Shown: positions 1,170 through 45,758 of the stretch, in pieces
How positions within the stretch are numbered: position 1 is the first letter of the stretch
Layout of the letters: every line of letters starts with the position of its first letter
NCBI GenBank assembly: GCA_964187785.1
Contig: OZ076409.1
Span: 25,980,001-26,044,000 of the forward strand
DNA length: 64,000 nt
From: Amphiscolops sp. MND2022
Taxonomy: Eukaryota
Direction: 5' to 3'
Position numbers and translations under genes: made by a program
The notes under the pieces: generated by a model
What the model was told of the DNA's origin: nothing
What the model saw: the letters and a program-made list of their open reading frames with translations, nothing else
The model's database searches: none

Positions 1170-1715
1170 GTGGGCACAAACTACGATCTAAGGAATAAGA
1201 TCGAAACGCACTTCTGTAACTAAGATCTAAAGAACTAAGATCTAAATGTCATTTTTCGTAACTAAGATCTAGAGAATGCCAGCTCCCGAATCGTACCGAA
1301 AGTCTAAATTTCAGACGTTATTCCCGTTTTAATTTCCGTTATTCCCATTTTTTAGATGTTACGGTAAAGTATAAAATGCTTTAAAGTATAAAACGTGCCT
1401 CAGATATGTCCCAATTTCCTCTAGTGCCCTGCGGCCCCTTGGGGCCGCTTATGTTCCCATCTTGCTAAGCGAGGTCGAACAGGAGCAAAGACCTAGCGGG
1501 AACGGAGATCGCGAAGCGATCGTAGTGGGAGCTGGTCTTTGCGACGGTGAGGGCGAGCGTGCATACACCGTATATGACCCCACATTATTCCTTAGACGTT
1601 ATTTTAATTCAATTTAGACCTTAGTTACGGTGCATGCTTTTTAGATCTTAGTTCTTTAGATCTTAGTTACGAAATTTCTTTAGATCTTATTCCTTAGACC
1701 TTAGTTGCGGTCCCC
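1170..1715 (+). mobile_element. Foldback/MULE-like MITE, arm family A (TAAGATCTA repeats), copy 1, carrying the conserved core
   Basis: Imperfect TIRs gtgggcacaaactacgatctaaggaataagatc / gatcttattccttagaccttagttgcggtcccc; 9-bp TSD gcttgggac at 1161-1169 and 1716-1724. Confidence 0.8.
1421..1585 (+). repeat. Conserved ~165-bp GC-rich structured core, candidate ncRNA; other copies at 3535-3698, 4586-4749, 6657-6821, 7762-7925, 8671-8833 and a half copy at 1976
   Basis: Near-identical ctagtgccccgcggccccttggggccgc...gcatatgccccacat set inside different arm families; several stems; upstream TATAAAA. Confidence 0.85.
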
Positions 1716-2390
1716 GCTTGGGACGTGGGCACAAACTACGATCTAAGGAATAAGATCGAAACGCACTTCTGTAACTAAGATCTAAAGAACTAAGATCTAA
1801 ATGTCATTTTTCGTAACTAAGATCTAGAGAATGCCAGCTCCCGAATCGTACCGAAAGTCTAAATTTCAGACGTTATTCCCGTTTTAATTTCCGTTATTCC
1901 CATTTTTTAGATGTTACGGTAAAGTATAAAATGCTTTAAAGTATAAAACGTGCCTCAGATATGTCCCAATTTCCTCTAGTGCCCTGCGGCCCCAAGGGGC
2001 CGCGGGGCACTAGACGAAATGGGGACATATCCGAGGCACGATATATGTAATATATTTTTTTTCCGTAATTTTTCGATCTTATTCCATTCGATCTTATTCC
2101 ATTCGATCTTAGGCGATGAACGATTTCATTCGATCTTATTCCGTTCGATCTTATTCCATTTTCGTATTTTCGATCTTATTCTTTCGATCTTATTCCGTTC
2201 TCCTAGCAGGAATAACGTCTAAGGAACAACGTCTAAGGAATAACGTCTAAAGCCAAGTCATGCTCAGTCATGCTTATTCCCAATCTTAATACATTGGATT
2301 TTAGACGTTATTCCTTTAGACGTTATTCCCGAAACACTTTTAGACGTTATTCTTTAGACGTTATTCGCGCCCCTAAGGGGAGCGGAATAA

Positions 2391-3189
2391 ATGGGCTACA
2401 TCAGGGCTGCCCAAAAATTAATTGATTGAAAATTAATTGCAATTAATTGCTAGAAATTAATTGATTGCTAGAATTTGCAATTAAAATTAATTAATTTTTT
2501 CGTTCCAATTAATTGCAATTAATTGGTGTAATACATGTATTTCATGCATTTGCAACTTGCAAGTGAATCTGCTGCATATTCATTCGGTGATTTCCGTCAA
2601 AGTCTGCTACCAATGAATTTGGAGATGCAACTTTTCCTAAAGATGAATAAAAGATTTTGGGACGAACAAATTCTTGCATCAATTGTTGCTTGAATTCATT
2701 ATTGTGATTAATAGTTTTGTTGTTACTTAATAGAGTAGAGATACAATTAACTGCAATTAATTGCAGTTAATTAATTTTTCAGAAGAGCAATTAAAATTAA
2801 TTGATTTTCATTGTTGAAGTGGCAGCAATTAATTGCAATTAATTTTTGGGCACCCCTGGGCTACATCATGGCCTCTGCCGAAAAGAAAACTGTTATGGAC
2901 CCCAAGATGATGAACACCCCTGTACTTGTGATGAATGCGGAGAAAACTGTGAGAATCCCAATCATTTGGAAGACTGCTCTGGGCTTAATTCATCAGATAC
3001 CCTCAAAAAACTGCGGCTAATCTACGATAAAATAGAACCCAGGAAAATACCAACCGATTAATTTCATTTTAGTTTAAATAGTTTACGCTCAATGCATACT
3101 GTATATTTATGCACGTGCTTTATGTTATTTTATGTTCTTCCTACAAGTTGTCTTTATAAAGACGTGAATTCAATTGTTCTGTTCTGTTC
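2391..3189 (+). mobile_element. 5'-truncated non-LTR retrotransposon 3' end (Cys/His C-terminal domain plus 3' UTR), interrupted by the hAT MITE
   Basis: 15-bp TSD aggggagcggaataa at 2376-2390 and 3190-3204; ORF ...HHGLCRKENCYG...CTCDECGENC...NHLEDC; tail ataaagacgtgaatt..(gttct)n. Confidence 0.72.
2402..2858. mobile_element. hAT-type MITE
   Basis: TIRs cagggctgcccaaaaattaattg / caattaatttttgggcacccctg; perfect 8-bp TSD ggctacat at 2394-2401 and 2859-2866; internal AATTAATTG repeats. Confidence 0.88.
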
Positions 3190-3887
3190 AGGGGAGCGGA
3201 ATAATATGTGGGCACAAACTAGGGGAAACGGAAATCGGACTGAGGAAATTGAACTAATGGAATTAGGACTAACATGCTCAAAATTTCTGAAACGTTCATG
3301 TGAAATAGAACTAATTTCGTATTTTTTCAAACAGGAATTTGATCTAATTTGTTACGGGAATTGGAACTAAAAACAGGAATTAGAACTAATTTGTTACGGA
3401 AATTGGAACTAAAAAAGTGGGAATAAGACCTAAAATGCTGAATGAGACCCAAGGGGAGAACGGAATAGTATCTAAAGAAATAATATCTAAAGTTTTTCAA
3501 AGTATAAAAGGTGCCTTTGAAATTTTCCTTTCCTCTAGTGCCCCGCGGCCCCTTGGGGCCGCTTATGTTCCCATCTTGCTAAGCGAGGTCGAACAGTAGC
3601 AAAGACCTAGCGGGAACGGAGATCGCGAAGCGATCGTAGTGGGAGCTGATCTTTGCGACGGTGAGGGCGAACGTGCATACACAGCATATGCCCCACATTG
3701 AAATTTCGCTTTCAGAAAGTCCACATGTATTGAATTTCCCTTTTTGTTTGTTTTGATGGTCCAGTAAATATGTCCTTCGCATTTTAGACCTTAGTTACGG
3801 TGCATTCTTTTTAGATCTTAGTTCTTTAGATCTTAGTTACGAAAATTCTTTAGATCTTATTCCTTAGACCTTAGTTTCGGTCCCCGC

Positions 3888-4230
3888 TTGGGACACCATG
3901 GTTTATGTCAGAGGAAAGGATGTTATGGGGCAAACAGAGACGAGGAGATATGTATATGTGAGCTGTGTAGTCAAAACTGTGGGGATGACAACCATTTAGA
4001 GGAATGCCCAAGCTTAAATGACACAGATTTCTTCAAAAAACTGCGCTATGTTTACGCAAGAACATTATCTATATGACAGTTTACTTTATTTCTTTTTCAA
4101 TACTGTACTTTTTCATTATTGCACGTGTTATATTTTAAATACTTTCTCACCACTTGAAGTACCCAACATTTGTACACTTTATCTTTCAGTTGTCTTATGA
4201 ATAAGACGTGAATTTATCTTATCCTATCCT
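3888..4230 (+). mobile_element. Second 5'-truncated non-LTR retrotransposon 3' end; its first 7 nt lie at 1163-1169
   Basis: 15-bp TSD aacagacgtaggggc at 1148-1162 and 4231-4245; ORF GHHGLCQRKGCYG...CICELCSQNC...NHLEECP; tail ataagacgtgaatt..(atcct)n. Confidence 0.72.
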
Positions 4231-4238
4231 AACAGACG

Positions 4239-5186
4239 TAGGGGCGGGAATAACGTCTAAGGATTAACGTCTAAAGGAATAACGTCTAAATTTTACTCAT
4301 TTTTCGGGAATAACGTCTAAAGATTTAGACGTTATTCCCATTTTTTTAGATGTTATTCCCGATTTTGAAATATTGTTTCTTGTGCTGAAAAGTTCTTCCC
4401 TTGGTCTAGTTTTCAGGTAATAACGTACAAAATCCAGAAAAAACGCCCAAAATATCCGAAAGTCATCGAAATACGACTGAGAAACAGGAAAAACAAATTA
4501 AATTGGAAAAAATAAATCGTTTCAGATCTAAAATTAAAAAGTGATATATAATATAAAACGTGCTTCGGATATGTCCCCATTCCTTCTAGTGCCCCGCGGC
4601 CCCTTGGGGCCGCTTATGTTCCCATCTTGCTAAGCGAGGTCGAACAGGAGTAAAGACCTAGCGGGAACGGAGATCGCGAAGCGATCGTAGTGGGAGCTGG
4701 TCTTTGCGACGGTGAGGGCGAGCGTGCATACACCGCATATGCCCCACATTTTGATTTTTCGCTTTCAGAAAGCCTTTTTCGAAACAGGAATAACGTATAG
4801 AACTTTAGACGCTAGTCTCAAAAAATGATTTATTTTAGACGTTATTCCCGTTTTATATTTAGATGTTATTCCCCAGACGTTCTTCCCGCTGCCACGTATT
4901 TTGATGATTTTTTTGCTATTTTAGACGTTTTTGCCAATCTTAGACGTTATTACCGTTTTCAAACGTATTTTGATCGTTTTTTGACATTTTAGGCGTATGT
5001 CGTTTTTAGACGTTATTCCTCTTTTTAGACGTTATTCCGCTTTTTAGACGTTATTCCACTTTTTAGACGTTATTCCCGTTTTTTTAGACGTTATTCCCGT
5101 TCATTTCAGATTTAGATGTTATTCCTTTAGACGTTATTCCCGGTGGACTTTTAGACGTTATTCCTTAGACGTTATTCCTGTTCCCC
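4239..5186 (+). mobile_element. Foldback/MULE-like MITE, arm family B (TAGACGTTATTCC repeats), copy 1, carrying the core
   Basis: Left arm (GGAATAACGTCTAA)n, right arm (TTAGACGTTATTCC)n; 9-bp TSD gaacagacg at 1147-1155 and 5187-5195. Confidence 0.8.
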
Positions 5187-5209
5187 GAACAGACGTAGGG
5201 GCGGGAATA

Positions 5210-7286
5210 GGGGAAACGGACCCATATCAAACATACCTGTCCATATCAAACTGATCGATATGTCCAAAGCATTTGACAATGTATGTCGAACCTCGCTCAA
5301 AGAAATGTGCAAATGTATTATGGATGACACCAGTTTCACTCTCTTAGAGCTCCTACTCGACCGCATTGATGTAAAAGTGCGAGTTGGAAACCATCACAGC
5401 AAAATTTTTACGACGAATAAAGGCGTGCCTCAAGGGGATGCTCTCAGTCCCATACTGTTCATTTTATACCTGTCGAACACACTAGCAGGAGTCTTCATAG
5501 CCCCAGAAGAGCGAGATCATGACTACGGAAACCCAGGGATTCGGTTCTCAGATGACCCCTCTTTGTCAGTGATCACTCTCCAATATGCTGATGATATCGC
5601 ATATATCGACCGAGACCTTGAAAAACTAAACCAAAAAATGTATAAGGACTCAAAAAATCTTGCACGAGCTGGCTTGACCGTTAATCACAGCAAAACAGAA
5701 GTTAGAACCTTCGTTTCAGGGCAACTGAGACCTCCCAACCTCAAATATTTAGGCTCCCACATCGACACAGACGAAGACATCACGAATCGACAGCGATTAA
5801 CATGGGCTGCAATGGCAAAATTGAGACAAATACGAAAAAATGCAGACATACCAACGCTGGAGACAATTTGGAAATCGCTATTAGAACCTATTTTTCTCTA
5901 TAACAGCGAATTATGGTCACTGACCAAAACCAGAGAGAAAAAAGTCGATGTCATGCAACGAAAGTTCATTAGAATACTCCTGTCAATAAAGCTGATAGAC
6001 AAAATCAAGAATGAGGAATTGTACAGACGATTAAATACAGAGCCATGGTCGTCAGCCATCCAAAAACGACGGCTGAGATTCTTTGGGCACATAACTAGAC
6101 TCTCATCTGAAACCCCAGTTCGAAGATGTCTCCACCAAACATCAACCAGATGGGGCAAATCAAAGGGAGCAGCCCGACTGACATGGAAGAAACTTATTAC
6201 AACCGATTTGGCGCCATATGATATCAACCCAGATGACCAGACAACATGGGAGTCGCTGAGGAAGAGAAATGTAAACTTCTGATCTGATTGAATGAACAAT
6301 GCCCTCGGGCGTATATGTTAATTAGATGATGATGATGATGAGGGGAAACGGAAATCGGACTAAAGAAATTGAACTAATGGAATTAGGACTAACATGCTCA
6401 AAATTTCTGAAACCTTCATGTGAAATAGAACTAATTTCGTATTTTCTCAAACAGGAATTAGAACTAATTTGTTACGGGAATTGGAACTAAAACAGGAATT
6501 AGAACTAATTTGTTACGGGAATTGGAACTAAAAAAAGTGGGAATAAGACCTAAAATGCGGAATGAGACCCAAGGGGAGAACGGAATAGTATCTAAAGGAA
6601 TAATATCTAAAATTTTTCAAAGTATAAAACGTGCCTCTGATATTTCCTCATTTCCTCTAGTGCCCCGCGGCCCCTTGGGGCCGCTTATGTTACCATCTTG
6701 CTAAGCGAGGTCGAACAGGAGCAAAGACCTAGCGGGAACGGAGATCGCGAAGCGATCGTAGTGGGAGCTGGTCTTCGCGACGGTGAGGGCGAGCGTGCAT
6801 ACACCGAATATGCCCCCACATTAGAAGGGGAAAGTACTGAAAATTTTGTGAGTCATTTACGAAACATAAAATTTTATTCTTCAATAAAATGATTTGAGAT
6901 CTGACTATTTTATAAAATCAATGGAAGGAGAAAAATAATGATTGTATCAATTTTTTATTGATCAATTGTATTACGTTACTTTTGTACTACTTTCATTGTA
7001 CTACCACAAAATTTGAATTTTGTACCATGTTTTTATCCGCTTCTGCGTTTTTTTTGTTGTACCTTTTTTTATGTTGGATGTTTACAATTGAACATGTCGT
7101 GATTTTGTCAATTCGATCTACGTAATTGCAAATTTTCCGTGCCAAAAGTTGTTTTAGTCCTATTTCAATCAGTCCTATTTCCATTAGTTCTAAGGCGGCA
7201 CTAAAAAAGAATTAGTCCTATTTCCATTAGTCCTATTTCAGTTGTGATTATTAGTCCTCCTTCATTAGTCCGAATTCCTGTCTCCC
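5210..7286 (+). mobile_element. Foldback/MULE-like MITE, arm family C (GAACTAA/GGACTAA repeats), carrying the core and interrupted by an RTE LINE
   Basis: TIRs ggggaaacggaaatcggactaa / ttagtccgaattcctgtctccc; 9-bp TSD gcgggaata (5201-5209) / gcggtaata (7287-7295). Confidence 0.8.
5221..6340 (+). mobile_element. 5'-truncated RTE-clade LINE; RT C-terminal half with an open 340-aa frame at 5260-6282
   Basis: DMSKAFD, GVPQGDALSPILF, QYADD, KYLGS, RRLRFFGHITR; (GAT)n tail; TSD aggggaaacgga at 5209-5220 and 6341-6352. Confidence 0.9.
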
Positions 7287-8399
7287 GCGGTAATAACGTC
7301 TAAGGAATAACGTCTAAAGGAATAACGTCTAAATTTTACTCATTTTTCAGGAATAACGTCTAAAGATTTAGACGTTATTCCCGTTTTTTTAGATGTTATT
7401 CCCGATTTTGAAATATTGTTTCTCGTGCTGAAAAGCTCTTCCCTTGCTCTAGTTTTCAGGAATGAACTATGTAACAATCGAAAGCCACGGAATACGAGCA
7501 AAAGTCTATGTGTCTGATGGGTATTTGTACCTAAATCGACAAACAGGCCAAAATATTTAAAAAAAACTATGTAAAAACGTCCGAAAAAAAGGAATAACGT
7601 ATAAAATCCAGAAAAAACGCCCAAAATATCCGAAAGTCATCGAAATACGACTGAGAAACGGGAAAAACAAATTAAATTGGGAAAAAAAGAAATCGTTTAA
7701 GATCTAAAACTAGAAAGTGATATTAAATATAAAACGTGCCTCGGATTTGTCCCCATTCCTTCTAGTGCCCCGCGGCCCCTTGGGGCCGCTTATGTTCCCA
7801 TCTTGCTAAGCGAGGTCGAACAGGAGCAAAGACCTAGCGGGAACGGAGATCGCGAAGCGATCGTAGTGGGAGCTGGTCTTTGCGACGGTGAGGGCGAGCG
7901 TGCATACACCGCATATGCCCCACATTTTGATATTTTCGCTTTCAGAAAGCCTTTTTCGAAACAGGAATAACGTCTAAAACTTTAGACGCTAGTCTCAAAA
8001 AATGATTTATTTTAGACGTTATTCCCGTTTTGTATTTAGATGTTATTCCACAGACGTTCTTCCCGCTGCCACGTATTTTGATGATTTTTTGACATTTTAG
8101 ACGTTTTTGCCAATTTTAGACGTTATTCCCGTTTTTCAGACGTATTTTGATCGTTTTTTGACATTTTAAACGTGTGTCAGTTTTAGACGTTATTCCTCTT
8201 TTTAGACGTTATTCCGCTTTTTAGACGTTATTCCACTTTTTAGACGTTATTCCCGTTTTTTTAGACGTTATTCCCGTTCATTTCAGATTTAGATGTTATT
8301 CCTTTAGACGTTATTCCCGGTGGACTTTTAGACGTTATTCCTTAGACGTTATTCCTGCTCCCCGAACAGACGATGGGAACGGAATGGGAGAGGGGAATG

Positions 8400-9140
8400 G
8401 CGAAACGGAAATCGGACTAAAGAAATAGAACTAATAGAATTAGGACTAACATGCTCAAAATTTCTGAAACGTTCATGTGAAATAGAACTAATTTCGTATA
8501 TTCTCAAACAGGAATTAGAACTAATTTGTTACGGGAATTGGAACTAAAAAAGTGGGAATAAGACCTAAAATGCGGAATGAGACCCAAGGGAGAACGGACT
8601 AGTATCTGAAGGAATAATATCTAATGTTTTTCAAGGTATAAAACGTGCCTCTGATATTTCCCCATTTCCTTTAGTGCCCCTTGGGGCCGCTTATGTTCTC
8701 ATCTTGGTAAGCGAGGTCGAACAGGAGCAAAGACATAGCAGGAACGAAGATCGCGAATGAGATAGCGATCGTAGTGGGAGCTTGTCTTTGCGACGGTGAG
8801 GGCGAGCGTGCATACACCATATATGCTTCACAATAGGTGGGGAAAGTACTGAAAAATTTTGTAAGACCTTTACGAAAGTTTTATTTTCTTCTCAAATAAA
8901 ATGATTTGGGCTCTGACGATTTTATAAATTATAGAAATCAATAATTGAGAAGTTTGTAATTGAATGTTTATTTGTGTGGATTACCTCAATTCCATCAGCT
9001 TGAGATTTGTTTCTGAAGATTTGGTAATAAATTCTGGCTTCTAACGTTCCCTGGAAAACGATTTTTTAGGTCTTGTTCAACTAGTTTTTGATTTTAGGTC
9101 TTATTCCTTTTGAAACTTTAGGTCTTATTCCCGGTTACCG
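8400..9140 (+). mobile_element. Diverged family-C left arm, core, and a different right arm (TAGGTCTTATTCC repeats)
   Basis: Homologous to 6343-6920 on the left and centre; right end differs; boundaries approximate. Confidence 0.65.
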
Positions 9141-9421
9141 GACGATGCGAGCTGGAAGGGAGAACGTTGTAAAATATAATTCCCAGAATCTAATTCATTA
9201 AGATTTTAAAAAATAACACTCAACGCTCAAAAAAGGACGTAGATCTTAGGAATTAGATAAGATCTAAATAATAATATCTAAAACTGGGGAGTAGGAAAAA
9301 CGTCTGAAGGAGTAACGTCTAAAATTCAATGTAAAAAGATTGGGAATAAGCATGATTGAGCCTTGGCTTTAGACGTTATTCCTGCTCCATCTGTCATGCT
9401 TATTCTCCAATCCTAATACAT

Positions 9422-9568
9422 CTTGTTACTGGTCTACTGGTATAGTGGCTGGTATGGGGTTCCCTACTTTCGTTGCAGACCACGGGTGTGTGTCTTCTCC
9501 CCCCAAAATGATGATACACATGGCACTTGATTGATGACGAAGATCCATGATATCTGATAGAGGAAAAA
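9422..9568 (+). mobile_element. Short A-tailed retroposed insertion in a family-B mini element
   Basis: TSD aatacat at 9415-9421 and 9569-9575; the empty site taatacattggatt is seen at ~2288. Confidence 0.6.
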
Positions 9569-9792
9569 AATACATTGGATTTTAGACGTTATTCCCGAAA
9601 CACTTAAAGACGTTATTCCTTAGACGTTATTCGCTCCCTAAAAATTTTTGACTTCGAAAAGGGGAATAAGATCCAAAATTGACTTTAAAAAAGATCCAAA
9701 CTTGCAAAATTGAAAAAAAAACATGATCAGTTCTCAAAATCTATATTAATTAAAGTTCAGTTGAGTGTGATTTCAAGAATTAGACGTCATTC

Positions 9793-31859: not shown

Positions 31860-34800
31860 TGTTCCGCCTATGGGGAAAACGTCTTGGGGAAGAAGCTGCA
31901 GGTATTTGTCAAAAGTCTTTTTTGTTTTCAAATCTGAACAATATTTGGGTTGCTACACAATTCCGATTTTCTATTTACCGCGATTAATGAATCATTGAAA
32001 AGTTAACTAACCACACTGCAACAAGTAAAAATCCTTCCAAAATGGCAATCAAATCAATAGTTTCATTGGTTGTTCATGACTTTTTGATGTATGAGTTGAT
32101 TCAATCAAATCATGAGTCATCTGAATGACACACTCCCGCCACTTCGTCTGATTGAGCAAATTCCTGTGGACAGTTTGACAGTTTAATTATCTCATCAACT
32201 TCAACGTATCAAGATTAATGTTTTCCAGTTAATCATTGTTCGTCTTTAGCAAGAATCAACACAAATTTTTGGATTGGCCTGGACAAACAAGTCTTAACTC
32301 CATTCTTTGCGACAATTTCAACTTCAACATCTCTCACTAATCCATCTCGTCCAGGATATACTTCTCGAATCCTTCCTAACTTCCATCATCCTCTTATTGT
32401 ATTTTGATCTTCCACTAACACTACATCATCCTTTTCAAAGTTCCTGTGAGTATCACGCCATTTTTTGTAGAAACACATCTGTGGCAGAAAATTTCTTTGC
32501 CATTTCTTCCAAAAGCTGTCCAAAACATTTTCGACTAGGTTCTGACGGGTCAAATTACATCCATTGTTTGTTGGAAACGGCACAGTTTGGTTTTGAGTAC
32601 GGCCGAGTAGCAGAGAATTGGGAGACAAGTAGAACCCATCATCAGGGTGAGTCGGATGTCTTCCAATGGGTCGATCATTCAGCAGGTTTGCTACCTCGAA
32701 CAAAGTTGTTTGCATTTCCATCAACGATAGGACTTGATTTCCAATAGCAAAAAACAAGCAATTTTTTACTGAGCTGATTAGCGACTCAGCGCAAGCTTGT
32801 CGCCATGGAGCACAGCCGGGTGCAAATTCCCACCGCAATCCTTTAAAGTTGAATTCTTTAATGAGGAAATCATCTTTCATAATCTTGAAGCTGCCTTGAA
32901 AAGCTTTGTTGGCCCCAACTAGTTGAGTACCTGAGTCAGAATGAATGACTTCAGGAAATCCGCGAAGTGAAACAAATCTCCTGAAGGTTTGCAGAAACTC
33001 CTTTGTCGAGTAATCCATTACTATATCCAAATGTGCTGCTCGAGAAAAAAGGCAAGTGAAAATGGCCGCATAAATTCTATAATGCGAAGTCTTTTTCAAA
33101 TTGCTCCTCACGTTGTATGGTCCCAACAATGGATTTACCCGCTCCTCAGTTGCAGAACCCATAAGTTGCGCAGCTTTCTTTGTTGTAAAGTCTACATCCA
33201 GTGCAAAACTTTAAAACAGATTTAATATTTCTTAGCAGGTTCGGTGACCAAAGTTTCGTACGAACTTTGCTTGCAGTCGCTAAAACTCCTAGGTGACCAG
33301 GTTGGTGTGCTTCTTTTATTGCCAGCTTCACCAATTTCGATGACTTTGGTAATAATGGCACAACTTCACTGATCCTCCGGCCAGCCATAATCAGCCTTTT
33401 CTCGTTTTTAAAAGCACCTAAACGTTCAAATTTTCCGCTTTCAAAACTTTGTTGAAGTTCTTTCTGCTCGTGTTTGACTATGAAATTCCATGCTTCTTCA
33501 ATTTCTCCTAGTGTCAGCATTTGAGCTAAGACTTTCAATGATCTTCGCGTTTTCAGCAATAAAATCCTTGCAATGGTTCTGATCAAAGAGTCTAAGGACT
33601 TAAATCTATCAACTTCGTAGTCGATTATTTCGCTGTGTTTTTCTTGAATTGAAAATGTCTTGCTTTTAAACACATCAAGTAAATCGCTCATAGAGTATTG
33701 CTTTTCTTGTAGTGGCCAATGCTGTTCTTCTAGCTGTAAAAAGGATGGACCGGATTGCCATTTCGACCCCAATTTAAGTTCAGCTGGTGAAGACCCTCTT
33801 GAAATGAGATCAGCTATGTTCAAGTCACCAGGTACCCAGAAGAAGTCTTTCGGGTTCTCTGTTTCTTGCATTTCACCCAAACGATGTCCTGTAAAAATAT
33901 TGAAACCGTAAGATTCCTTTTGGGTCATTGCTCGTACAATTGCTGAATCTACTAAAAACTTTACACTGTCGAAGTTCAATCGAGAATGTTCGAAGAGAAA
34001 ACTTTTGATCCTGACTGCCAATAACAGCCCGCGAAGTTCCAATCGGACATTGGAAATTTGACGTTTGAGAGCTAATCTGCTTTTAGCTAAAATTAAATTC
34101 GATACATGAGCTCCGTCCTCCACTTCCCACACAGCATAAGCACACGCACCAAAAGCTTCTTTTGATGCATCGCTAAAGACAACTAACTGAGGATTTCCCA
34201 CCGCATTTTTTGGTTTGATACAACGAGGGAAAGAGACATCTCTCATTTCAAAAAGCTCTCCAAAAATTGTAATCCATTCGGCAAGCAGCGACGGAGGAAG
34301 GCTTTGGTCCCATTCATCCGCCCTGTTGGCCTCCCAAGTTCTTCTCATAAGAACTTTTGCTTTAACTGTGAGGGGAGTTGCTAGTCCCAAAGGGTCGAAA
34401 ATCGAATTTAGTTGGCTAAGAGCTTGACGTCTTGTGAGACTCGCTGGGGGATCAGCTCTCAAATCGTTCAACTTTGTGTACTGCTTAGTAGAAACTTTTG
34501 TTTTTATAACTACTTTAGACTTAAACTCAAAAACATCTTTTTCCAAACACCAAGTCAATCCGAGTACTTTTTCGCTTTCTTCTGTATTAGCAAGGCAAAC
34601 TTCGGTTGTTTTCCCTCCTGAAAAAATCTAATTTTTTAATTTTGAAAGAACCAGCGGCAAGTATCGTCTCCAGATTAGTAGTGCGAGTTTTAGCAATATT
34701 CAAAGTTTCGACGCTATCAATTATGTCATCCGTACATGTAGACGTCTGTATAACTAATTTTTCTTCTTTATAGTCATCAGAAGCAAGTTCCGCTGTTCTC

Positions 34801-37800
34801 CTCGAAGCTAGGTGAGCAATTGTTGCTGCAGGTTCGGTCTCCAAAAGAAACCACTTGCATCATGTATTCGTCCGGTTCGTCCTTTAGACGATAATCTCGC
34901 CATAGGAATCTGTGGGTGTGCTGGTCTTCCAATGCCATTCGAATAGTGTGATACATCTTTCGAATATCACCAATGTAAGCCACATGGTTTTCACGGAACT
35001 TTACTAAGATACCCAATAAGTTTCCGAGAAGGTCTGGACCTTTCGCCCAATAGTCGTTCAGGACGTGGTTTTTGTAATTAGCAGATGCATTAAAAACAAT
35101 TCTGCAAGGCGTGGAAGCAGAATCCTGCTTCAGTACCTCATTGTGACTAATGTAATGCACCGGACCATTGTAATTCAAGTCTTCCGCATCCAATTTTTTT
35201 AGCAACACCGCGATCCAACATCTCTTGTATTTGACTTTGATAAGTTTCAGCTTGTTTCTCGTCTTTCAAAAGTCTCTTCTCTGTGTTTTGTAACTTGTGT
35301 GTGTTTTGTAGGATCTCTCGCAGTCCATACTTTATTTTCTAAAGATAATCCGTTATGAATTAGTTCCAATTCTCTTTTATCTTTGATGGAAAATTCTGAA
35401 GCTCCTAGTCCGCACTGACCGCATTTGCAATTACCACATTTTGGACTACATGAAATTCCAAGGTTTTCAATCTTGTAGAAGTCATCAACTGTAATTTTGG
35501 ATTGATTAAAATTGACTGTAGTAGACTGGATTGAGTTTGCTGTTGGATCTGTTCCCTTTACAAACTTTCCGAATGCATTTTCAAACAAGACAAAATTTCC
35601 ACAACATTTTACTGGTACAGGGTGATACTGTACAACGTTCAAACCCAAAAGTAGTGAAATAAATCCCCTTTTGTCCTGCTGATTCTGAAACTCCGTAGGA
35701 AAAATTGTTCGATGAGGTTCTGTACTGTATTCCTCAGTCGATATTTGATCAACACCATACGATTCAACGGGAACGAGATTGTCGTCTTGATCTCTTATAC
35801 TGAACATGAACAGTTTGTTTGCTTTCTTTTTGTTTGGCCGAGTGTTTCCATCACAATAGAAACAGCTTTGCCTGGAACTTCCAAGGTGTTTGCGACTGAG
35901 TTAAAAATTAAAGACACTGTAGAAGCTGAGTCCCAAAGAGAAAGAATATTCTTAGACTGGGTAGGAGTGATAATCTCTATTGACATGATTTGCAACAAAC
36001 ACGTTTCCCCTGCTATATTACACTTCGCAGAGAAACTGTTAGTCTGTTGGGTTGCTCTTTGAAAATGACTATCATGCAAGAGAGTGTGATGGTTCCTCCC
36101 GCATTCCTTTTGCTGGCATTGCTTCCTGCTTTTATATGTTCGCGATGTGTGCCCAATATTGAGACAATTAAAACACGCTCTTCTTTCTTTTACTAGATCC
36201 GATCGCTCGCGAACAGATTTGTCCATGAATAATCTGCATTCATCTGTCCGATGTTCTGATCCAGGATGCAAAAAACATTTCGGATTAGCTGGCATTGTCC
36301 ACTATCTCTTACCAGGTTCAGTCGAACATTAGCCTTTACTTCTTCTTTATTTCGTTTCAACAAATTCAAGTCATATTCAACTACCATTTTCCTCTCTAAC
36401 AAAAATTTTAGAAAACCGGGAAACTTATCGCCTTTGTCAATTGCACTATCTTTCTCGTAAATTCTTTCCATCCATTTTTTTCTCAAGTCGTCAGGCAATT
36501 TTTCTTCAATTCTTGAAATAATTGTACTGTTTTTAATTTCAGCCTCCCGCCAAGGATATTTCAATTCCATACTTGCTTTCTCTATGATGTCAATAAAAGC
36601 CAGGAGACGTCTTTCTTCGTTTTCTTTTATCGGTCGGAAATGTTTAATATCATTGAGAACAATTTCTACAATCTTGCCTTCATCGCCATACCTCTCATCT
36701 AACCGTGTCCACATTTCTTTGATATGAGACAGTTGACTCATCCACGATGACAGAAGAAACTTGTTTTTCGAAGTCTTTTTTGAACTGTGGCCAATCTCTA
36801 CAGTTACCACTAAACTTGGGAAATTTCATTTTTTCCATGTGCGTTAGCACTCGTTTTGCATCTACTGCATCTCCCCCATCGCACTCACTTTGGCACGTAA
36901 GAGAGTTCGACGCTTGGTAGAAGATAACATCAAATTTGTTAAAGATTTTTGTAAAAACATTTGAGTCCAATTCTTCTAGTTCACCCGAATCTTTCATTTC
37001 CGAAAAAGCCTCGAATAGCTCCGTAACTTCTTTAAATTGTCTTTGAAAGTCGCCTTTTACTGCTTTCAAAGTTTTATCGTTCGGCGCTGAAATGTTTTCG
37101 AAAGGTTGGCAAATGTTACTGAGTCTATTCAGTTCGATATTGTATCTGTCGTTCAATTTTCGACATCTTTCTCTAAGCTCATTCCTTTTCAAATCTTCCT
37201 CCTTTTCGGCAACTCTTTTAGCATTTTTTTTCAAAATTGGTTTTTTCTAAAGACATTGTCTTTTCCTTTAAAATCTTTTCGAATTGGCATTTTTTCGATC
37301 TTAATTCATGGAATTTGGATTCAGGTTCGTCTATCCACAAAATTTCAGCTTCATATGTATCCTCATTAACTGTTAACATGTAACGTTCATGTGCACTTTG
37401 GACATTGAACCATGTTTTTGACACATCTTGGAACATCTCTTGGTGCTCTTCAAAATCGGGATCAAAAGTTAACAAGAAGTTCTCATACCTTGTACATGCT
37501 TTATTGAAATTTCTGAGAGATAACGCCCTTGCTCTTTTTTCCATGATGCTGTGATTTGAATGTTCCGCCTATGGGGAAAACGTCTTGGGGAAGAGGCTGC
37601 AGGTATTCGTCAAAAGTCTTTTTATTTCAAATCTGAACAATATTTGGGTTGTTACACAATTCTGATTCTCTATTTACCGCGATTAATGAATCATTGAAAA
37701 GTTAACTGACCACACTGCAACAAGTAAAAATCCTTCCAAAATGGCAATCAAATCAATAGTTTCATTGGTTGTTCATGACTTTTTGATGTATGTGTTGATT

Positions 37801-37829
37801 CAATCAAATTATGAGTCATCTGAATGACA
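31860..37829 (-). mobile_element. BEL/Pao LTR retrotransposon, full-length but frameshifted
   Basis: ~270-bp TG..CA LTRs at 31860-32130 and 37561-37829; PPT ggcgggagtg; gag (KFPKFSG, CFNCLNIGH), protease (LWDSASTVS), RT (CRIVFNAS, GPDLL, GDIRKMYH), Pao RNase H (VFSDASKEAFG), integrase (HSDSGTQLVGA). Confidence 0.93.
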
Positions 37830-39870
37830 CACTCCCGTCACTTCGTGTGATTGAGCAAATTCCTGTGGACAGTTTGACAGTTTAATTATCTCATCAACTT
37901 CAACGTATCAAGATTAATGTTTTCCAGTTAATCATTGTTCGTCTTTAGGAAGAATCAACACAAGTTTTTGGATTGGCCTGGACAAACAAGACTTAACTCC
38001 ATTCTTTGCGACAATTTCAACTTCAACATCTCTCACTAATCCATCTCGTCCAGGATATACTTCTCGAATCCTTCCTAACTTCCATCATCCTCTTATTGTA
38101 TCTTGATCTTCCACTATCACTACATCATCCTTTTCAAAGTTCCTGTGAGTATCACGCTCTTCTTGCTTTTACTAGATCCGATCGCTCGCGAACAGATTTG
38201 TCCAGGAATAATCTGCATTCATCTGTCCGATGTTCTGATCCAGGATGCAAAAAACATTTCGGATTAGCTGGCATTGTCCACTATCTCTTACCAGGTTCAG
38301 TCGAACATTAGCCTTTACTTCTTCTTTATTTCGTTTCAACAAATTCAAGTCATATTCAACTACCATTTTCCTCTCTAACAAAAATTTTAGAAAACCGGGA
38401 AACTTATCGCCTTTGTCAATTGCACTATCTTTCTCGTAAATTCTTTCAATCCATTTTTTTCTCAAGTCGTCAGGCAATTTTTCTTCAATTATTGAAATAA
38501 TTGTACTGTTTTTTATTTCAGGCTCCCGCCAAAGATATTTCAATTCCATACTTGCTTTCTCTATGATGTCAATAAAAGCCAGGAGACGTCTTTCTTCGTT
38601 TTCTTTTATCGGTCGTAAATGTTTAATATCATTGAGAACAATTTCTACAATCTTGCCTTCATCGCCATACCTCTCATCTAACCGTGTCCACATTTCTTTG
38701 ATACTGTCACTCAGATTACGGACCAAACTTTTCGCATTGTCAGGCAACGCGTTTCGTAAGGCATATGAGACAGTTGACTCATCCACGATGACAGAAGAAA
38801 CTTGTTTTTCGAAGTCTTTTTTGAACTGTGGCCAATCTCTACAGTTACCACTAAACTTGGGAAATTTCATTTTTTCCATGTGCGTTAGCACTCGTTTTGC
38901 ATCTACTGCATCTCCCCCATCGCACTCACTTTGGCACGTAAGAGAGTTCGACGCTTGGTAGAAGATAACATCAAATTTGTTAAAGATTTTTGTAAAAACA
39001 TTTGAGTCCAATTCTTCTAGTTCACCCGAATCTTTCATTTCCGAAAAAGCCTCGAATAGCTCCGTAACTTCTTTAAATTGTCTTTGAAAGTCGCCTTTTA
39101 CTGCTTTCAAAGTTTTATCGTTCGGCGCTGAAATGTTTTCGAAAGGTTGGCAAATGTTACTGAGTCTATTCAGTTCGATATTGTATCTGTCGTTCAATTT
39201 TCGACATCTTTCTCTAAGCTCATTCCTTTTCAAATCTTCCTCCTTTTCGGCAACTCTTTTAGCATTTTTTTCAAAATTGGTTTTTTCTGAAGACATTGTC
39301 TTTTCCTTTAAAATCTTTTCGAATTGGCATTTTTTCGATCTTAATTCATGGAATTTGGATTCAGGTTCGTCTATCCACAAAATTTCAGCTTCATATGTAT
39401 CCTCATTAACTGTTAACATGTAACGTTCATGTGCACTTTGGACATTGAACCATGTTTTTGACACATCTTGGAACATCTCTTGGTGCTCTTCAAAATCGGG
39501 ATCAAAAGTTAACAAGAAGTTCTCATACCTTGTACATGCTTTATTGAAATTTCTGAGAGATAACGCCCTTGCTTTTTTTCCATGATGCTGTGATTTGAAT
39601 GTTCCGCCTATGGGGAAAACGTCTTGGGGAAGAGGCTGCAGGTATTCGTCAAAAGTCTTTTTTGTTTTCAAATCTGAACAATATTTGGGTTGTTACACAA
39701 TTCTGATTTTCTATTTACCGCGATTAATGAATCATTGAAAAGTTAACTAACCACACTGCAACAAGTAAAAATCCTTCCAAAATGGCAATCGAATCAATAG
39801 TTTCATTGGTTGATCATGACTTTTTGATGTATGAGTTGATTCAATCAAATTATGAGTCATCTGAATGACA
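37561..39870 (-). mobile_element. Second, internally deleted BEL/Pao copy in tandem, sharing the middle LTR
   Basis: Third LTR at 39600-39870; gag ORF 38172-39671; pol missing at the junction 38153-38157. Confidence 0.9.
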
Positions 39871-40385
39871 CAAATATTAGCAAAGTCCGGGTTGGTTGGT
39901 TAAATTTGTGTAGGTCTGAATCTGGCATCTCGTGCACCCTTTGCATCTTCAGATCCTATGCCTGGACCCAAAGACTGTAGTCCCCACGTGTATCTGTGGT
40001 ATCTCTAAAGGTGTTAAATGCTACCTGAATCTGAATATCATTGTTTGACCAGCAAAATCCTGCGTTTATGTCCCTATTTGTTTAAAGAACACGCAGTTTT
40101 TATATTGCAATGTTACTAAAAAAGAGTATCAGGTTCTCTGACTTTGAGGACGTCGCAATGACGGTGGTCTAAAAATAGCAATTGAAAAGCCGCGTGCCTG
40201 GCGTCACATACTTTAGGTGAAGTAAGGTATCAATGCAAATGTCAGTGTAAGCAAATTCGCTTTATATAATTAACTAGTCAACTGCGTACGCACCGTACTT
40301 AGAACGCGTTTCCTTCTAGTAAAATCTAGTGTTAAAAAATCTAGTAAAATATTCAACCTTTTGCGAATCTTGACATGCATACCTG

Positions 40386-40968
40386 CGCTAGTTTAGAAGA
40401 AATTGAAATCTTGCACTTATATTTTGCGAGCCGTTGTCAGTCTTGCGAGAATCTTGCAAGACCTTGCAAAGCTTGCAAGATGATTAATTAGATAGAATCT
40501 TGAAGACATCATATTTATGGTTGTCAAAGATGGTCTTTTTCACTAGTTTTTGTTCTTTTTTTTCCCAAGACAAAGTACACCTACGACCAATTTAGGTTCA
40601 TTCGGCCTACTTCTAAAGTGAAAACTTCGTATCTATCTAGCAGTCTCCACTAAGTCAATATTGAATGGAGAAAACTGAGGTGACTAAAGCAAGATTACTG
40701 TCTACGAACATCTTGTGACTAGCGGAGTTGATCATTCGGTGATGTCCATTGCAGAGAACACAACGAAAGGTTTTTTGGACACCGAGAATTCTCAGTTGAA
40801 GCATGCAAATATCTTGGTACTTTCTTTGCAAATCTCTTGCAATTTTGATTCATTTTTCGCAAGAAGTTTGTAAGAATGTTGCAAGACAGTTTGTAAGAAT
40901 AATGCATTATCTTGCAAGATGTCTTGCAAGATATTTTCAAGAATGATAGATGTTTTAAATCTAGGGAG
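40386..40968. repeat. MITE-like repeat with TCTTGCAAGA arrays at both ends
   Basis: Clusters of cttgcaag at 40440-40505 and 40810-40940; boundaries approximate. Confidence 0.45.
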
Positions 40969-41244
40969 CGAATAATATTGTATCATCTTTGCTCCCTTCA
41001 CTGCCTTTATTAATATAACGATAGCGTTTTATTTGAAAAGGAAGTTCAGTCTTTTTTATTCGTCAACTATCTGAAACAGTCAACTAAACGTCCATTGAAA
41101 ATGTGCAAATTTTTTCCTGTTGGCAAAAACAACGAGACCAAAAGGCCGCTTCGGGCTTTTTTCAACAATGGTCCTTTTTCTGGAGAAATTATTGTTCCAT
41201 TAGCAAACAAAGTTTCACAAAGATTTAAAATGCATCCCGGAACC

Positions 41245-44200
41245 TGTAAATGCCGATGGATAAATAAAAATTGAATTTCAAAGTAAGGTTTCGACAGTAG
41301 TGAGTTAACACGTACAATGTATCATCAGAGCATGCAATACAATCAACTGAATCTATCGTTAGCACAGGCACTAAATGTTCTACGATGAGAATGTTTCTAT
41401 GGCAGGTACTTTGAACTTAAACAATTGAAATGGCCATGTGAATGGTATCTTCTCCTCATTCCCCCTTCTGCAGTTAGGGAAACCAATCCTGATTCCCGGA
41501 GTGTTTCTTGTCGGATTGTCTGGCTTGCGTGTTCTCTTTCTTCAATTTTGGAAGGGGATTTGTAAGGAATCTTCGAAGTGGGCTGGAGATTGTTCCTAAA
41601 CGACCAATATTAGTAATATTCTACCAGCATTCGAATATTAGAAATTTTGAAACTCCGTGAATCGGTATTTTTACAAATTTGAGCCGTTGGCCATTTACTA
41701 AATCGGTCGACGGCCACCAAAATGTACACGTTACAGCGTGTCTTTGATTTTATTGGACCAGCGAAGTCCAATTGAAATTCTTGATATGGTTCAGACAAAA
41801 TTTCTAGTTTATTTTTCTCTGTGGACGGTAACTGTGTTACGAGATTCTTACCTGAAGCTCTGCAACTAGGACAATTTTCTACCTTTTCTCGAATTTCTTG
41901 ATAGATGCCGGGCCACCAAAATTCTGCCGCTAGTTGGTCCATCTTTGTCGCAGATGGGTGTCCTTGCTGAAGCAGAGCTATGACTGTTGTCCGCATGTTT
42001 TCGGGTATGATGATATTGTCATTGTATAAGAGAAGACCAAATCTGGCGGTTAGATGGCTTCTGTGTGGGCGATATATGGAGAATATGTCTTCTGGACGAT
42101 CTTTTTCTAGGGCGGCGATGGCGCTTAAAATCTTCACGTCCCTCGCTGTTTCGTCCACGAGCATTGGAAGGTCGAGAGCGAAGTCTTTCTCTGCCCTTTT
42201 GATGGTCTCCTCTGTGTGTTCGTTTTGGTTATCGTCCAACGTATTTGCTTTGACCGTCTGTTTCAGTCTGATTGGGTTGACGGTTTCGTGTTTCCGGAAT
42301 TTCTTGATTGCATTTGCAGGGCATTTCTCTTGTCGGACGTTGCGCTCCTGGCTCTCGCTGTCTGATGAGTTTTGAAAGATCCAAGTCTCATGGTTGTTTT
42401 GTTGGTATTCTCTCAGCGGTGTAGTTCCCAAAGTTTCACAATATTGAAAAAAAACGGTTATAAATTTAGATACTTAGCTCCACTATCCGCTTTCGTGCTT
42501 GTTGTGGGTGCCGATATTCTTGGAGTCGTTCGTGGTTGCTTCCCTTTCCGACTATTCTCGTCTTCTCTGATTTGAGAAGTCTCTTTCTCTCCGTCCCGAG
42601 TCGGTAGGTGTCTGGGGAATGGCCTCTCTTTTTAAAAATAAACTGCATATCGATACCATTAACTTTGTCCATTTTGCTATTTGGAGCGGATTGATCGAAT
42701 TTTAATAGTTTTGAAGTTGGATTAGCACCGTTCAATGGTAGTGAGGCTTCAAGCGAATGATTTTGTTTGTTCTGTTCACGCTTGCGTATGTCGTGCTGTG
42801 ATTGGTCAATTTTTTGTCCCGGTTTTATTCGTTACGTGAATCTCTTTATGCTTCCGTTCGTTTGGATGAATTTGAATAAGCCGTGTATTTGTTTTATCAC
42901 GAATTCTTCTTGGGATTCCGTTTCGGTTTGACCGCTTACGTCATTTTCCGTTTCGTTCTCAGCGGTGTTTACGATCGGATGTCGGCTTAAGTAATCCGTG
43001 AGCGGAATGTTTTTTCCAGCGGTATACTGTACGTTTGCATCAAAGTGACTCAATCTATCTAACCACTGTGTTAACCTAGCGCTATACTGCTTGTGCACCC
43101 TATTTCTTTTTAACAATGGTTGTAGTGCTTGGTGATCGGCTAACAAGTTGACTTTTACCGTAAACGTAGTATCTGAAATACTCTAATCCCCATAACGCTC
43201 CTAGTAGTTCTAGTTCAATAATAGCGTATTGCCTCTCTTAATCAGTGAGGAATCTACTAGCGAATGCAATCTGTCTGAAAATTTCGCCTTCTCTTTGCCA
43301 GAGTGTTGCCCCGAGTGCCGTGTTGCAAGCGTCTGTTGTCACGTAGTTGTCATTCTTTGTGTCGAAATGGGCGAGGCACGGTGATTCTGTTATCTCTTTC
43401 TTTAAATTCTCGAAATCACCATCTATTTCGGGCGTCCACTCCCAACGGGTTTCTTTTTTCAATAACCGTCTCATTCTGTCGGTCTTCTTGGACAAGTTAT
43501 TTATGAATTTTGACAAATGTTGTATCGAACCCAAAAAGGATTTTAATTCTTTGAGATTCTTTGGTGCGCTCAATTCGTTATTGCTTCTGTCTTGTCTTTT
43601 ATTGGTTTTACCCCGCTCTGGTTTATGTGGTAGCCCAGTCAGGTTAATTCTTGTTTGAAGAGTTCAGTTTTTTCTCTTGCTCTATATCCAGCGTTTTGAA
43701 ACCTGTTGAGTACTTCCCGTACTTCTTGTTCGTGTTCATCGATTGTTCCATTAGTTACACAGATGATGTCATCTAGCCACACTGGTGTTTTAAATTCTAG
43801 CACTTTGTCGATATGCTGATACTTTGCTGATTAATTCTTCCATGTTTGGCATTGCTGCCTTTCTCTTGACACATGCCTCATTCTGCTTCTTTGAGTCGAG
43901 GGCTATCTTCACGGATTTGTCCTTTTTTATGGCGATGACAGCTGGTGAGATAAAACAATTTTCCGTGGTTTTGTCTGCTTTCTCTAAGTGTCTTTTTTCA
44001 ATCAGCTTTTCTAGTTCATTTTTGACTGTTTTTTGAAAATGTATTGGTACTGGTCGTCCTTTTTGTTGTATTGGTTTCGTATCTCTTTTCAAATGGATAT
44101 CGATTGTCGGATCTTTGATTGTGTGACTATTTTTGAATAGGTCTTCGTATTCGTTTATAATCTTCTGTCGTCTTCCGTCAGTTTCGATGTGTCGGATAAA

Positions 44201-45758
44201 ATTCGTGTTTTTAATTCCTTGTAATCCGATTTCTTGTTTATCCAACCAATCCAATCCCAGTAAGGGTGGAATGTTCTTGTTTTCGGTAATTTGTATGGGT
44301 AAGACTTCTTTGCTTTTTTCCGTTTTCACTTCCACCATGGCTTCACCTTTGAATTTTATAGGGTTCTTGTTTACATCTACAAAGCATTTCGTGGTTTTGT
44401 GTATTTCTGTTGGACTAAATATCGGCGGTATTATCGTCACTGGAGAGTCGGTGTCAATGATGAATTCTATTGGCTGTCCCTGGACCAATAGTATCGTTTT
44501 GTAGAAGTCTACTCGGTTGATGCCGTTGACGGATTGGATAAGGTCGATATCTGGCCATGATTCTGTGTTGCAGTCCGTTGATGGTTCTTTCTGGATCCGA
44601 TTGACGGTCTTGGATTTGCACACTTTGGCTAAGTGTCCCATTTGTTTGCAGTTATTGCACTGTGCTCTCCGTGCTGGGCAGATGTGTTCCAAGGACCAGT
44701 TTGGTTTGCCGCAAAAGTGGCAGTTGCGGTTCGATAGCTTCTTCTTCCCAATTTCTGTTATCTTACGTTTCCGTGCTGGGTGTGTGTAGGCGACTTGTTC
44801 TTCGCTTGACGAGCTATCTGATGGGTGTTTTCTGTGTTTTTTGTTCGGCTTTTTGTCTCCGTATTTGCGATTGTAGTTGTCCTGTTCGATGGTTTCGAGG
44901 ACCATTTGGAGTTTCAGTTGCCCCTTTATGAATTTATCTCGGGCTTTTTTGTCATTGATAGTTGCTGCGATTTTGTACGTGATAATCTCTCCTGGTGTAA
45001 TTCTGTTGAATTCGCATTTTCTTTCGATGTCGACAAGTCTTTTCCATAGTTCATCTAATGTTTCGTTATCTTTTTGTTTGATGTTAAAGAATTGTGCTCG
45101 ACTGTGAAAAACATTTCGCGCAGCGATGAATGTTTCCTTAAATAGTTCCAATAGTTCTGATAGGTCCACATCTTTCAGCTCTCGGCCCCATTGACCCCTC
45201 ATAATTTCGTGTTTGGCTTCGGGGCCTAGTGCCGAGATAACATCTCCCTTGATGTGATTCACGGTGTGTGGGTCCATTTGATCAGCGCCTTGATCCATCA
45301 TTTCTTCTAGATGATTTCGGTTGTACGTAAGGTGTATCTACTCGGTAATTTGTTCCCACCACATTCGTGGGCTTATTTTTGTCAAATCGGTTTCTGTCCG
45401 AGAGGATTGGAATTTTGTATTTGTTTTTTTCCGTTCGGTCTGCTGTTGTCTGATTCATCATCGTCTGATTCGTGGCCAATTGGGCTGTTTGTACCGAAGT
45501 ATTCGGATCTGTTTGAATGTCCATTAGATTGCTGACTGCGCCATGTAAATGACCGATGGATAAATAAGAATTGAATTTGAAAGTAAGGTTTCGACAGTAG
45601 TGAGTTAACACGTACAATGTATCATCAGAGTATGCAATACAATCAACTCAATCTTTCGTTAGCACCGGCACTAAATGTTCTACGATGAGAATGTCTCTAT
45701 GGCAGGTACTTTGAACTTAAACAACTGAAATGGCCATGTGAATGGCATCTTCTCCTCA
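41245..45758 (-). mobile_element. Gypsy/Ty3 LTR retrotransposon, degenerate with internal deletions
   Basis: ~215-bp LTRs at 41245-41458 and 45544-45758; PBS TGGCGCAGTC (tRNA-Ser type); PPT agaagggggaa; TSD gaacc/gaact; gag CCHC knuckles, protease FIIDTDS, RT, RNase H (TTDAC..IAFASR), truncated integrase (QLDFAGP..VDRFSKW). Confidence 0.92.

Follow-up and report, generated by a model that had tools for sequence, protein, structure and literature searches.

A GC-rich, non-coding core recurs almost unchanged in foldback MITEs (miniature inverted-repeat transposable elements) with different arms in the genome of Amphiscolops sp. MND2022, which raises the question of what keeps an interior constant when the ends that carry it differ. 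The copies that posed this question lie in a window of 64,000 nucleotides, the whole stretch of DNA analysed (contig OZ076409.1, positions 25980001-26044000; assembly GCA_964187785.1, 1.07 Gb), for which an earlier note had proposed a functional unit spread by the elements, possibly a small RNA, a ribozyme or a single-strand signal. We conclude that the core is a conserved cassette common to many Mutator MITE families, kept by selection on replicating copies. The explanation that we favour, at a probability of roughly one half, is a portable DNA-level cassette that raises the copying of its carrier by the family's own transposase. In the coordinates of the fifth copy in the window, the parts of this cassette (cassette 1) are as follows.

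7744-7771, + strand: left border block, partly common to a second cassette (cassette 2).
7772-7908, + strand: central 137-nt constrained core, with a palindrome at 7772-7789, a stem at 7793-7822, a long stem at 7826-7883 enclosing a hairpin at 7848-7862, and a stem at 7886-7911.
7903-7926, + strand: right border block, partly common to cassette 2.

Constraint was evaluated with three polymorphism tests, all of them plain counts that are not tree-aware, in which a change present in several copies was scored as inherited, reflecting the founders that replicated, and a private change as having arisen after insertion. In each test the 137-nt centre held 4-8-fold fewer inherited changes than the flanks, with private mutation equal. 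Between families (13 families and 66 copies, two pairs of local duplicates having been dropped), the 48 border nt held 22 inherited alleles and the 137 central nt held 7 (p = 2.7e-6), against 40 private changes in the border and 102 in the centre, at rates of 1.1-1.4%. For family B, whose loci were picked by an arm segment (28 of 30 used, one mis-oriented locus and one duplicate dropped), the inherited alleles were 3 in 137 central sites vs 130 in 939 elsewhere (p = 0.006); for family E, picked by the end of the element (46 of 50 used, four duplicate partners dropped), they were 3 in 137 vs 37 in 394 (p = 0.0066), with equal rates of rare changes. All three tests uphold the earlier claim that the core is conserved more than the arms. 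The constraint was the same in loops as in stems.

These counts bear directly on neutral hitch-hiking, by which the core would be a recent filler passed on by chance that looks conserved because it is young. Pack-type capture needs no function and the loci were partly picked by the core, both of which would suit such a filler; yet inherited changes are about 8-fold more frequent in the border, which was captured together with the centre, the same contrast holds within the two families picked by arm or end, and the whole centre is retained in all 11 families compared. We regard hitch-hiking as already largely refuted and as the least probable of the explanations weighed here.

Core-bearing forms also dominate where elements were chosen by their ends. 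Family E has 730 exact left ends in the genome, and 50 consecutive ones comprised 47 core-bearing elements, two cut at the core border by another insertion and a single coreless element of 152 bp; 31 of these 50 ends were bounded by an 8-bp duplication. Complete family-E elements contained the core in 31 of 31 cases, and the 152-bp coreless form was found at full length in just 4 of 40 scored matches. This dominance, the central constraint and the sharing between families described below sustain the proposal that the core is a functional unit spread by the elements.

The core is about 180 bp long and is carried by at least 11 MITE families of the Mutator/Phantom type. Exact matches of one core 15-mer indicate at least 4,690 copies in the genome (reversed control, 0), and the first 30 matches on contig 1 combined one core with about ten kinds of foldback arm. 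Among 106 full copies, 38 left-flank and 35 right-flank classes occurred in 51 combinations, 15 of them with two or more members. The carriers are foldbacks of 350-1,100 bp with long modular inverted repeats, asymmetric outer motifs and mostly unrelated arms; complete ones have 8- or 9-bp target duplications at both sides, and their outer bases are mismatched and give way to tandem subterminal units. A search of the genome for the MULE domain gave 150 scored matches. Many of 20 MULE loci with long frames proved to be foldback elements of 1.9-2.7 kb, and the three open reading frames (ORFs) tested from long foldback elements all encoded FLYWCH and MULE domains. Five families (L167, L168, L166, L162 and L160) have a long coding element without its own core and short core-bearing derivatives, the sole internal core of the L160 coding element sitting in a nested MITE. 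The transposase frame of family E, in L167, is 528 aa long. The autonomous relatives sharing the core that the earlier note had suggested looking for did not emerge: in these five families the autonomous partners have the same ends and lack it. No autonomous partner was found for families A-D of the window (family B, 0 of 30 loci).

For the capture of the core, one member from each of 11 core-1 families was compared. Every pair shares a block that spans the centre and reaches at least 28 nt leftward and at least 13 nt rightward, with ragged ends; across most pairs the blocks extend 28-118 nt to the left and 13-132 nt to the right of the centre, the longest (left/right nt) being B-H 118/61, T-J 44/132, C-I 43/80 and E-F 47/45. 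Arm sequence is common to only 5 of 91 family pairs. The additional shared stretches of families H, T and F hold interior or arm pieces of the other family, which gives the direction of capture. On this sequence evidence the families captured the core from one another. For Pack-TIRs (TIR, terminal inverted repeat) the available text of PMC8277862 describes how filler comes to lie between Mutator ends, either when a gap is filled or when a fork switches template; core transfer fits such a route, which we propose here by analogy.

The window holds six full cores, all between 1401 and 8833 and with 85-99% identity to copy 5; a search of the remaining 55 kb gave no further core. The six full copies of the earlier note were thus found again, while its half copy resolved into two left halves of different families lying head to head. 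The elements concerned are listed below.

1170-1715, + strand: foldback MITE family A, complete and core-bearing; 9-bp target duplication at 1161-1169 and 1716-1724; identical ends at L028 and L107.
1401-1586, + strand: core (cassette 1) copy 1, central part at 1431-1567.
1725-3885, + strand: second family-A element, grown by nested insertions and recombination; target duplication again at 3886-3894.
1956-2052: a left half-core of family A in forward orientation, fused to an inverted left half-core of family D at the 18-bp GC palindrome 1986-2003.
2004-2204, - strand: inverted family-D segment comprising the left shoulder and the left arm; the arm recurs at L007, L008, L014 and L033.
3516-3699, + strand: core copy 2, chimeric, with a left arm of family C (from 3222) and a right arm of family A (3780-3885).
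4239-5186, + strand: complete element of foldback MITE family B, core copy 3 at 4566-4750; 9-bp duplications at L004, L006, L015 and L020.
6342-7286, + strand: element of foldback MITE family C, core copy 4 at 6637-6822; 972-979-bp members at L008, L010 and L112.
7287-8363, + strand: long-form element of foldback MITE family B, core copy 5 at 7742-7926.
7462-7551, + strand: probable 5'-end remnant of the parent transposase gene of family B, 30 codons behind a splice-acceptor-like site.
8400-9140, + strand: degenerate element of family-C type, with core copy 6 at about 8651-8833; right end approximate.

The 30-codon remnant peptide was found in most of the 30 family-B loci and gave no match in Pfam. 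Five arm units had been placed around the core in the earlier note; the fifth flanks no core of the window as a family of its own and lies inside family-C arms, with a fragment near 9095-9119. Other repeats share the window. Nested in the family-A element at 2402-2858 is a coreless, AT-rich MITE whose inverted ends are short and which has an 8-bp duplication; we take it to be hAT-like. A short coreless element with family-B-like arms occupies 2205-2384 and about 9290-9640, with a comparable form in L262; such forms could serve as a natural control. A 5'-truncated long interspersed nuclear element with a reverse-transcriptase frame (PF00078) and a trinucleotide tail was inserted into the MITE nest at 5155-6341, and broken long-terminal-repeat retrotransposon frames, presumably Bel/Pao-like and Gypsy-like, lie at 32386-45337.

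Cassette 2 has a different interior of about 105 nt with the border motifs of cassette 1 and occurs in at least five other Mutator foldback families. Two examples outside the window are the following.

L103, 3010-3160: cassette 2.
L083, 750-895: cassette 2.

Its left border pattern gave 3,447 matches, and 99 of 100 among the matches listed were of the cassette 2 type. The centre differed at two positions among the four best-sampled families, with likely local-duplicate pairs adding more. Likeness to core 1 resides in the borders (global z 3.6) and not in the interior (108 of 1000 shuffles). Cassette 2 folded no better than shuffles (z +0.5 to +1.4), and in one family it had been taken in reverse orientation relative to the parent gene. 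Since it is unstructured yet behaves like core 1, a stable fold is not required for the phenomenon. Outside the assembly, contigs of runs X1-X3 cover core 1 and those of X1-X2 part of cassette 2, at a depth of 2-10 and with flanks that partly resemble families of this genome; runs X4 and X5 had no match to either cassette. One contig of run X1 continues from the left block of cassette 2 into diverging sequence, which may represent a third type of cassette or the version of a relative. Viral contigs searched for the core gave 0 matches, and seven matches from a metagenome scan were rejected, as all of them lay in GC-rich DNA that is unrelated and lacks the remainder of the core.

The exchange between families could also be driven by the core itself as a recombination hub. 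Its palindrome and hairpins would stall forks or break, repair would switch to other cores, and the centre would be homogenised and new families seeded with no effect on transposition rate. The frequent chimeras (the 51 flank combinations) and the ragged shared blocks would be expected from such a process, and fork stalling with template switching has been proposed for Pack-TIRs, according to the accessible part of PMC8277862. Inverted junctions precisely at the 18-bp palindrome, of left-left and right-right types, were observed at L171-L174 and at window 1986-2003. Such junctions are rare, however, the reciprocal type amounting to 4 loci genome-wide against 4,690 cores, and cassette 2 has neither a palindrome nor a stable fold. 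Resident copies, moreover, show private changes at 1-2% inside and outside the centre alike, so that conversion with random copies as donors would bring new alleles into the founders instead of removing them. We consider a recombination hub unlikely.

A further alternative is that the core is a small mobile element in its own right, a Helitron end, a Crypton circle or a short interspersed nuclear element (SINE), that inserts into MITE centres. Two cassettes with common border motifs and different interiors would agree with this, as would a GC hairpin beside a Helitron-like terminal tetramer on the - strand and short direct repeats at both borders. The sharing, though, runs at least 28 nt past the supposed end and tetramer, and its boundaries are ragged; a search for the empty site with one pattern gave 0 matches; and MITE-type flanks persist in each of the 10 copies that have unique flanks at both sides. 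Neither an A or B box nor a tRNA head was found, and the ends of autonomous Helitrons are unrelated. A link to Merlin (20 loci), Helitron or Crypton-domain loci was rejected, as cores occur there only as nested MITEs. Insertion as an independent element therefore appears quite improbable. Many Helitron-type frames of 2,200-2,600 aa were observed at L220-L230, some of them clustered on contig 1 near 73-76 Mb, and a Helitron-type family of 1,320 aa has a long tandem-repeat 5' region.

The remaining alternative is a self-contained structured RNA or single-strand signal that favours its carrier, for instance by recruiting transposase or blocking silencing; this is the proposal of the earlier note less its type-3 promoter. 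All stems named in the earlier note were located in the core, where four stem-loops follow one another, and folding was moderately better than that of shuffles on both strands (RNA + z -2.6, RNA - z -2.1, DNA + z -2.4, DNA - z -1.5). About 88% of the expected changes are absent over the 137 nt, which fits a structured RNA too, and core 1 has the direction of the parent transposase in 4 of 4 families, including the family-B remnant. Two G-U pairs function on the + strand only. The four inherited helix changes are divided on this strand: two lead to G-U and the other two to A-C mismatches. Among 24 copies across families, 0 of 43 pairs had changed on both sides (shuffles, 0.4), at the low power given by copies that are about 92% identical and too alike for covariation to be expected. 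In 198 copies there were only two common central variants (75 and 46 copies), and the commoner one, at position 7794, breaks a pair in the stem 7793-7822 and one in the proposed GTTCCC/GGGAAC pseudoknot. That pseudoknot is 89% paired, and both sides changed in 1 of 6 pairs in two degenerate copies only.

No promoter is common to all the copies. The TATAAAA reported before every copy does precede the six full copies of the window, but genome-wide only 59 of 106 full copies have a TATA-like hexamer in the 40 nt upstream, and families E, G/K and D lack it, the upstream sequence varying by family. Runs of at least four T within 30 nt after the core were found in 76 of 106 copies, at varying positions in AT-rich flanks. 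As TATA is not common to all carriers, the layout of a type-3 RNA polymerase III (Pol III) gene is not supported. Inspection of the core for an A box, a full B box or an Sm site revealed only a six-base partial B-box on the - strand. A search of Rfam gave 0 hits at gathering score and one chance match outside the core (E 6.8), in line with the earlier note, which had not recognised a known RNA family, and ARAGORN found no tRNA. The ribozyme idea is likewise not supported, with no Rfam match and, at the low power stated above, no compensatory change in the stems; HDV-like (hepatitis delta virus) and twister folds, threaded by eye, did not fit. Together with the unstructured cassette 2, which behaves alike, these results make a structured RNA rather unlikely. 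A DNA-level enhancer is the most likely function, ahead of both the RNA or single-strand signal and recombination drive.

The equal constraint of loops and stems, the lack of covariation, the unstructured cassette 2 and its one reverse capture point to the DNA rather than the RNA level. In the DNA-level reading, a gap or stalled fork in a Mutator element would be filled by template switching onto a core-bearing MITE, giving a new family by the Pack-MULE route. Carriers of an intact cassette would then out-replicate others, probably because the GC/CpG-rich cassette is bound by a protein of the host or the transposon, or makes chromatin accessible, which would aid excision and end pairing.

Several observations weigh against an enhancer acting on DNA. 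The enhancing step is our inference from sequence evolution. The 88% constraint over 137 nt is tighter than usual for protein-binding DNA, and core 1 has the uniform orientation noted above. With a three-copy threshold for inherited alleles the family-B test fell to p = 0.064. The core is not essential, given coreless families of 215-260 bp and the short family-B-like coreless form at window 2205-2384; the scarcity of the 152-bp coreless forms may be a size effect; and most loci were picked via the core, so that core-bearing families are over-represented. We rejected the core as an insertion magnet: of 69 insertion sites 18 lay in members of these families, compared with 15 of 98 control points 0.5-1 kb away, and nested insertions showed no preference for core over arm. 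An anti-methylation role was rejected as well, since no protection of CpG sites was seen, CpG transitions exceeding other C/G transitions only about 1.2-1.8-fold in core and arms alike; such near-equal mutation of CpG and other C/G in these repeats suggests little repeat methylation in the genome. A bolder reading, which we hold only tentatively, is a class of at least two portable "MITE-maker" cassettes, with shared border motifs, different interiors and no ends of their own, that would move from one Mutator family to another and turn each into a high-copy MITE, for cassette 1 perhaps by way of a structured RNA or a single-strand fold.

Our literature search, conducted outside subscription journals and repeat databases, yielded no report of this cassette. 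The closest precedent is provided by the CMITEs of Acropora corals, whose families, in the available text of PMC2872659, have different terminal repeats and a common interior more conserved than the ends, with a related autonomous element lacking this interior and a role in transposition proposed and untested. Here too the interior is more conserved between families than the ends and the autonomous partner lacks it. CMITEs, by that text, are piggyBac-type elements of about 100 bp whose duplications are TTAA, whose interior measures 75 nt and which share a terminal motif, whereas the carriers described here are Mutator foldbacks of 350-1,100 bp with variable 8-9-bp duplications, two cassettes, traceable capture and measured constraint. 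The printed CMITE interior showed no likeness to the core by eye. The core thus works like a CMITE and is not a CMITE member, its carriers having neither piggyBac-type ends nor TTAA; what is new is the Mutator context, the traceable exchange between unrelated families, the two cassettes and the measured constraint.

Within Mutator elements, the available text of PMC3169594 describes Tm1-HH of root-knot nematodes as a Mutator/Phantom foldback that has asymmetric motifs at its termini, subterminal units in tandem, duplications of 9 bp, a FLYWCH+MULE partner and a hairpin motif inside the non-autonomous copies; it concerns one family and a known histone hairpin, and that text describes no cross-family cassette. 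Muta1/Phantom elements have 8-9-bp duplications, a terminal motif with transposase-binding subterminal repeats and FLYWCH+MULE proteins (PMC5499845, PMC6446971, available parts); the ends of Muta1 sufficed for transposition in yeast, and no conserved internal cassette is described in those parts. The carriers resemble Tm1 and Muta1 (PMC3169594 and PMC5499845, as far as available) in this layout of mismatched outer bases with tandem units next to them. An internal sequence of the rice Stowaway MITE Ost35 raises transposition and works with swapped ends (PMC3660474, available text), a precedent for an internal enhancer that is experimental and confined to one mariner family, unlike the enhancement deduced here from sequence evolution. 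The cargo of Pack-MULEs and Pack-TIRs, in the accessible part of PMC8277862, is host sequence that varies by element; here the same cargo was taken repeatedly from other MITEs and kept intact.

The precedents found are an internal enhancer that has been tested, in rice Ost35, and a conserved interior that has not, in coral CMITEs, and they touch the long-standing question of why MITE copy numbers lie far above those of the transposons that move them. If the reading is true, a MITE-maker cassette would parasitise elements that are themselves non-autonomous parasites, and selection would act on it solely via its effect on the replication of its carrier. This genome offers natural replicates, with one cassette in at least 11 families, purifying selection, intact-looking transposase ORFs and coreless controls, which make the enhancer idea directly testable. 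Should the cassette be active with unrelated transposases, it may serve as a general booster for transposon vectors.

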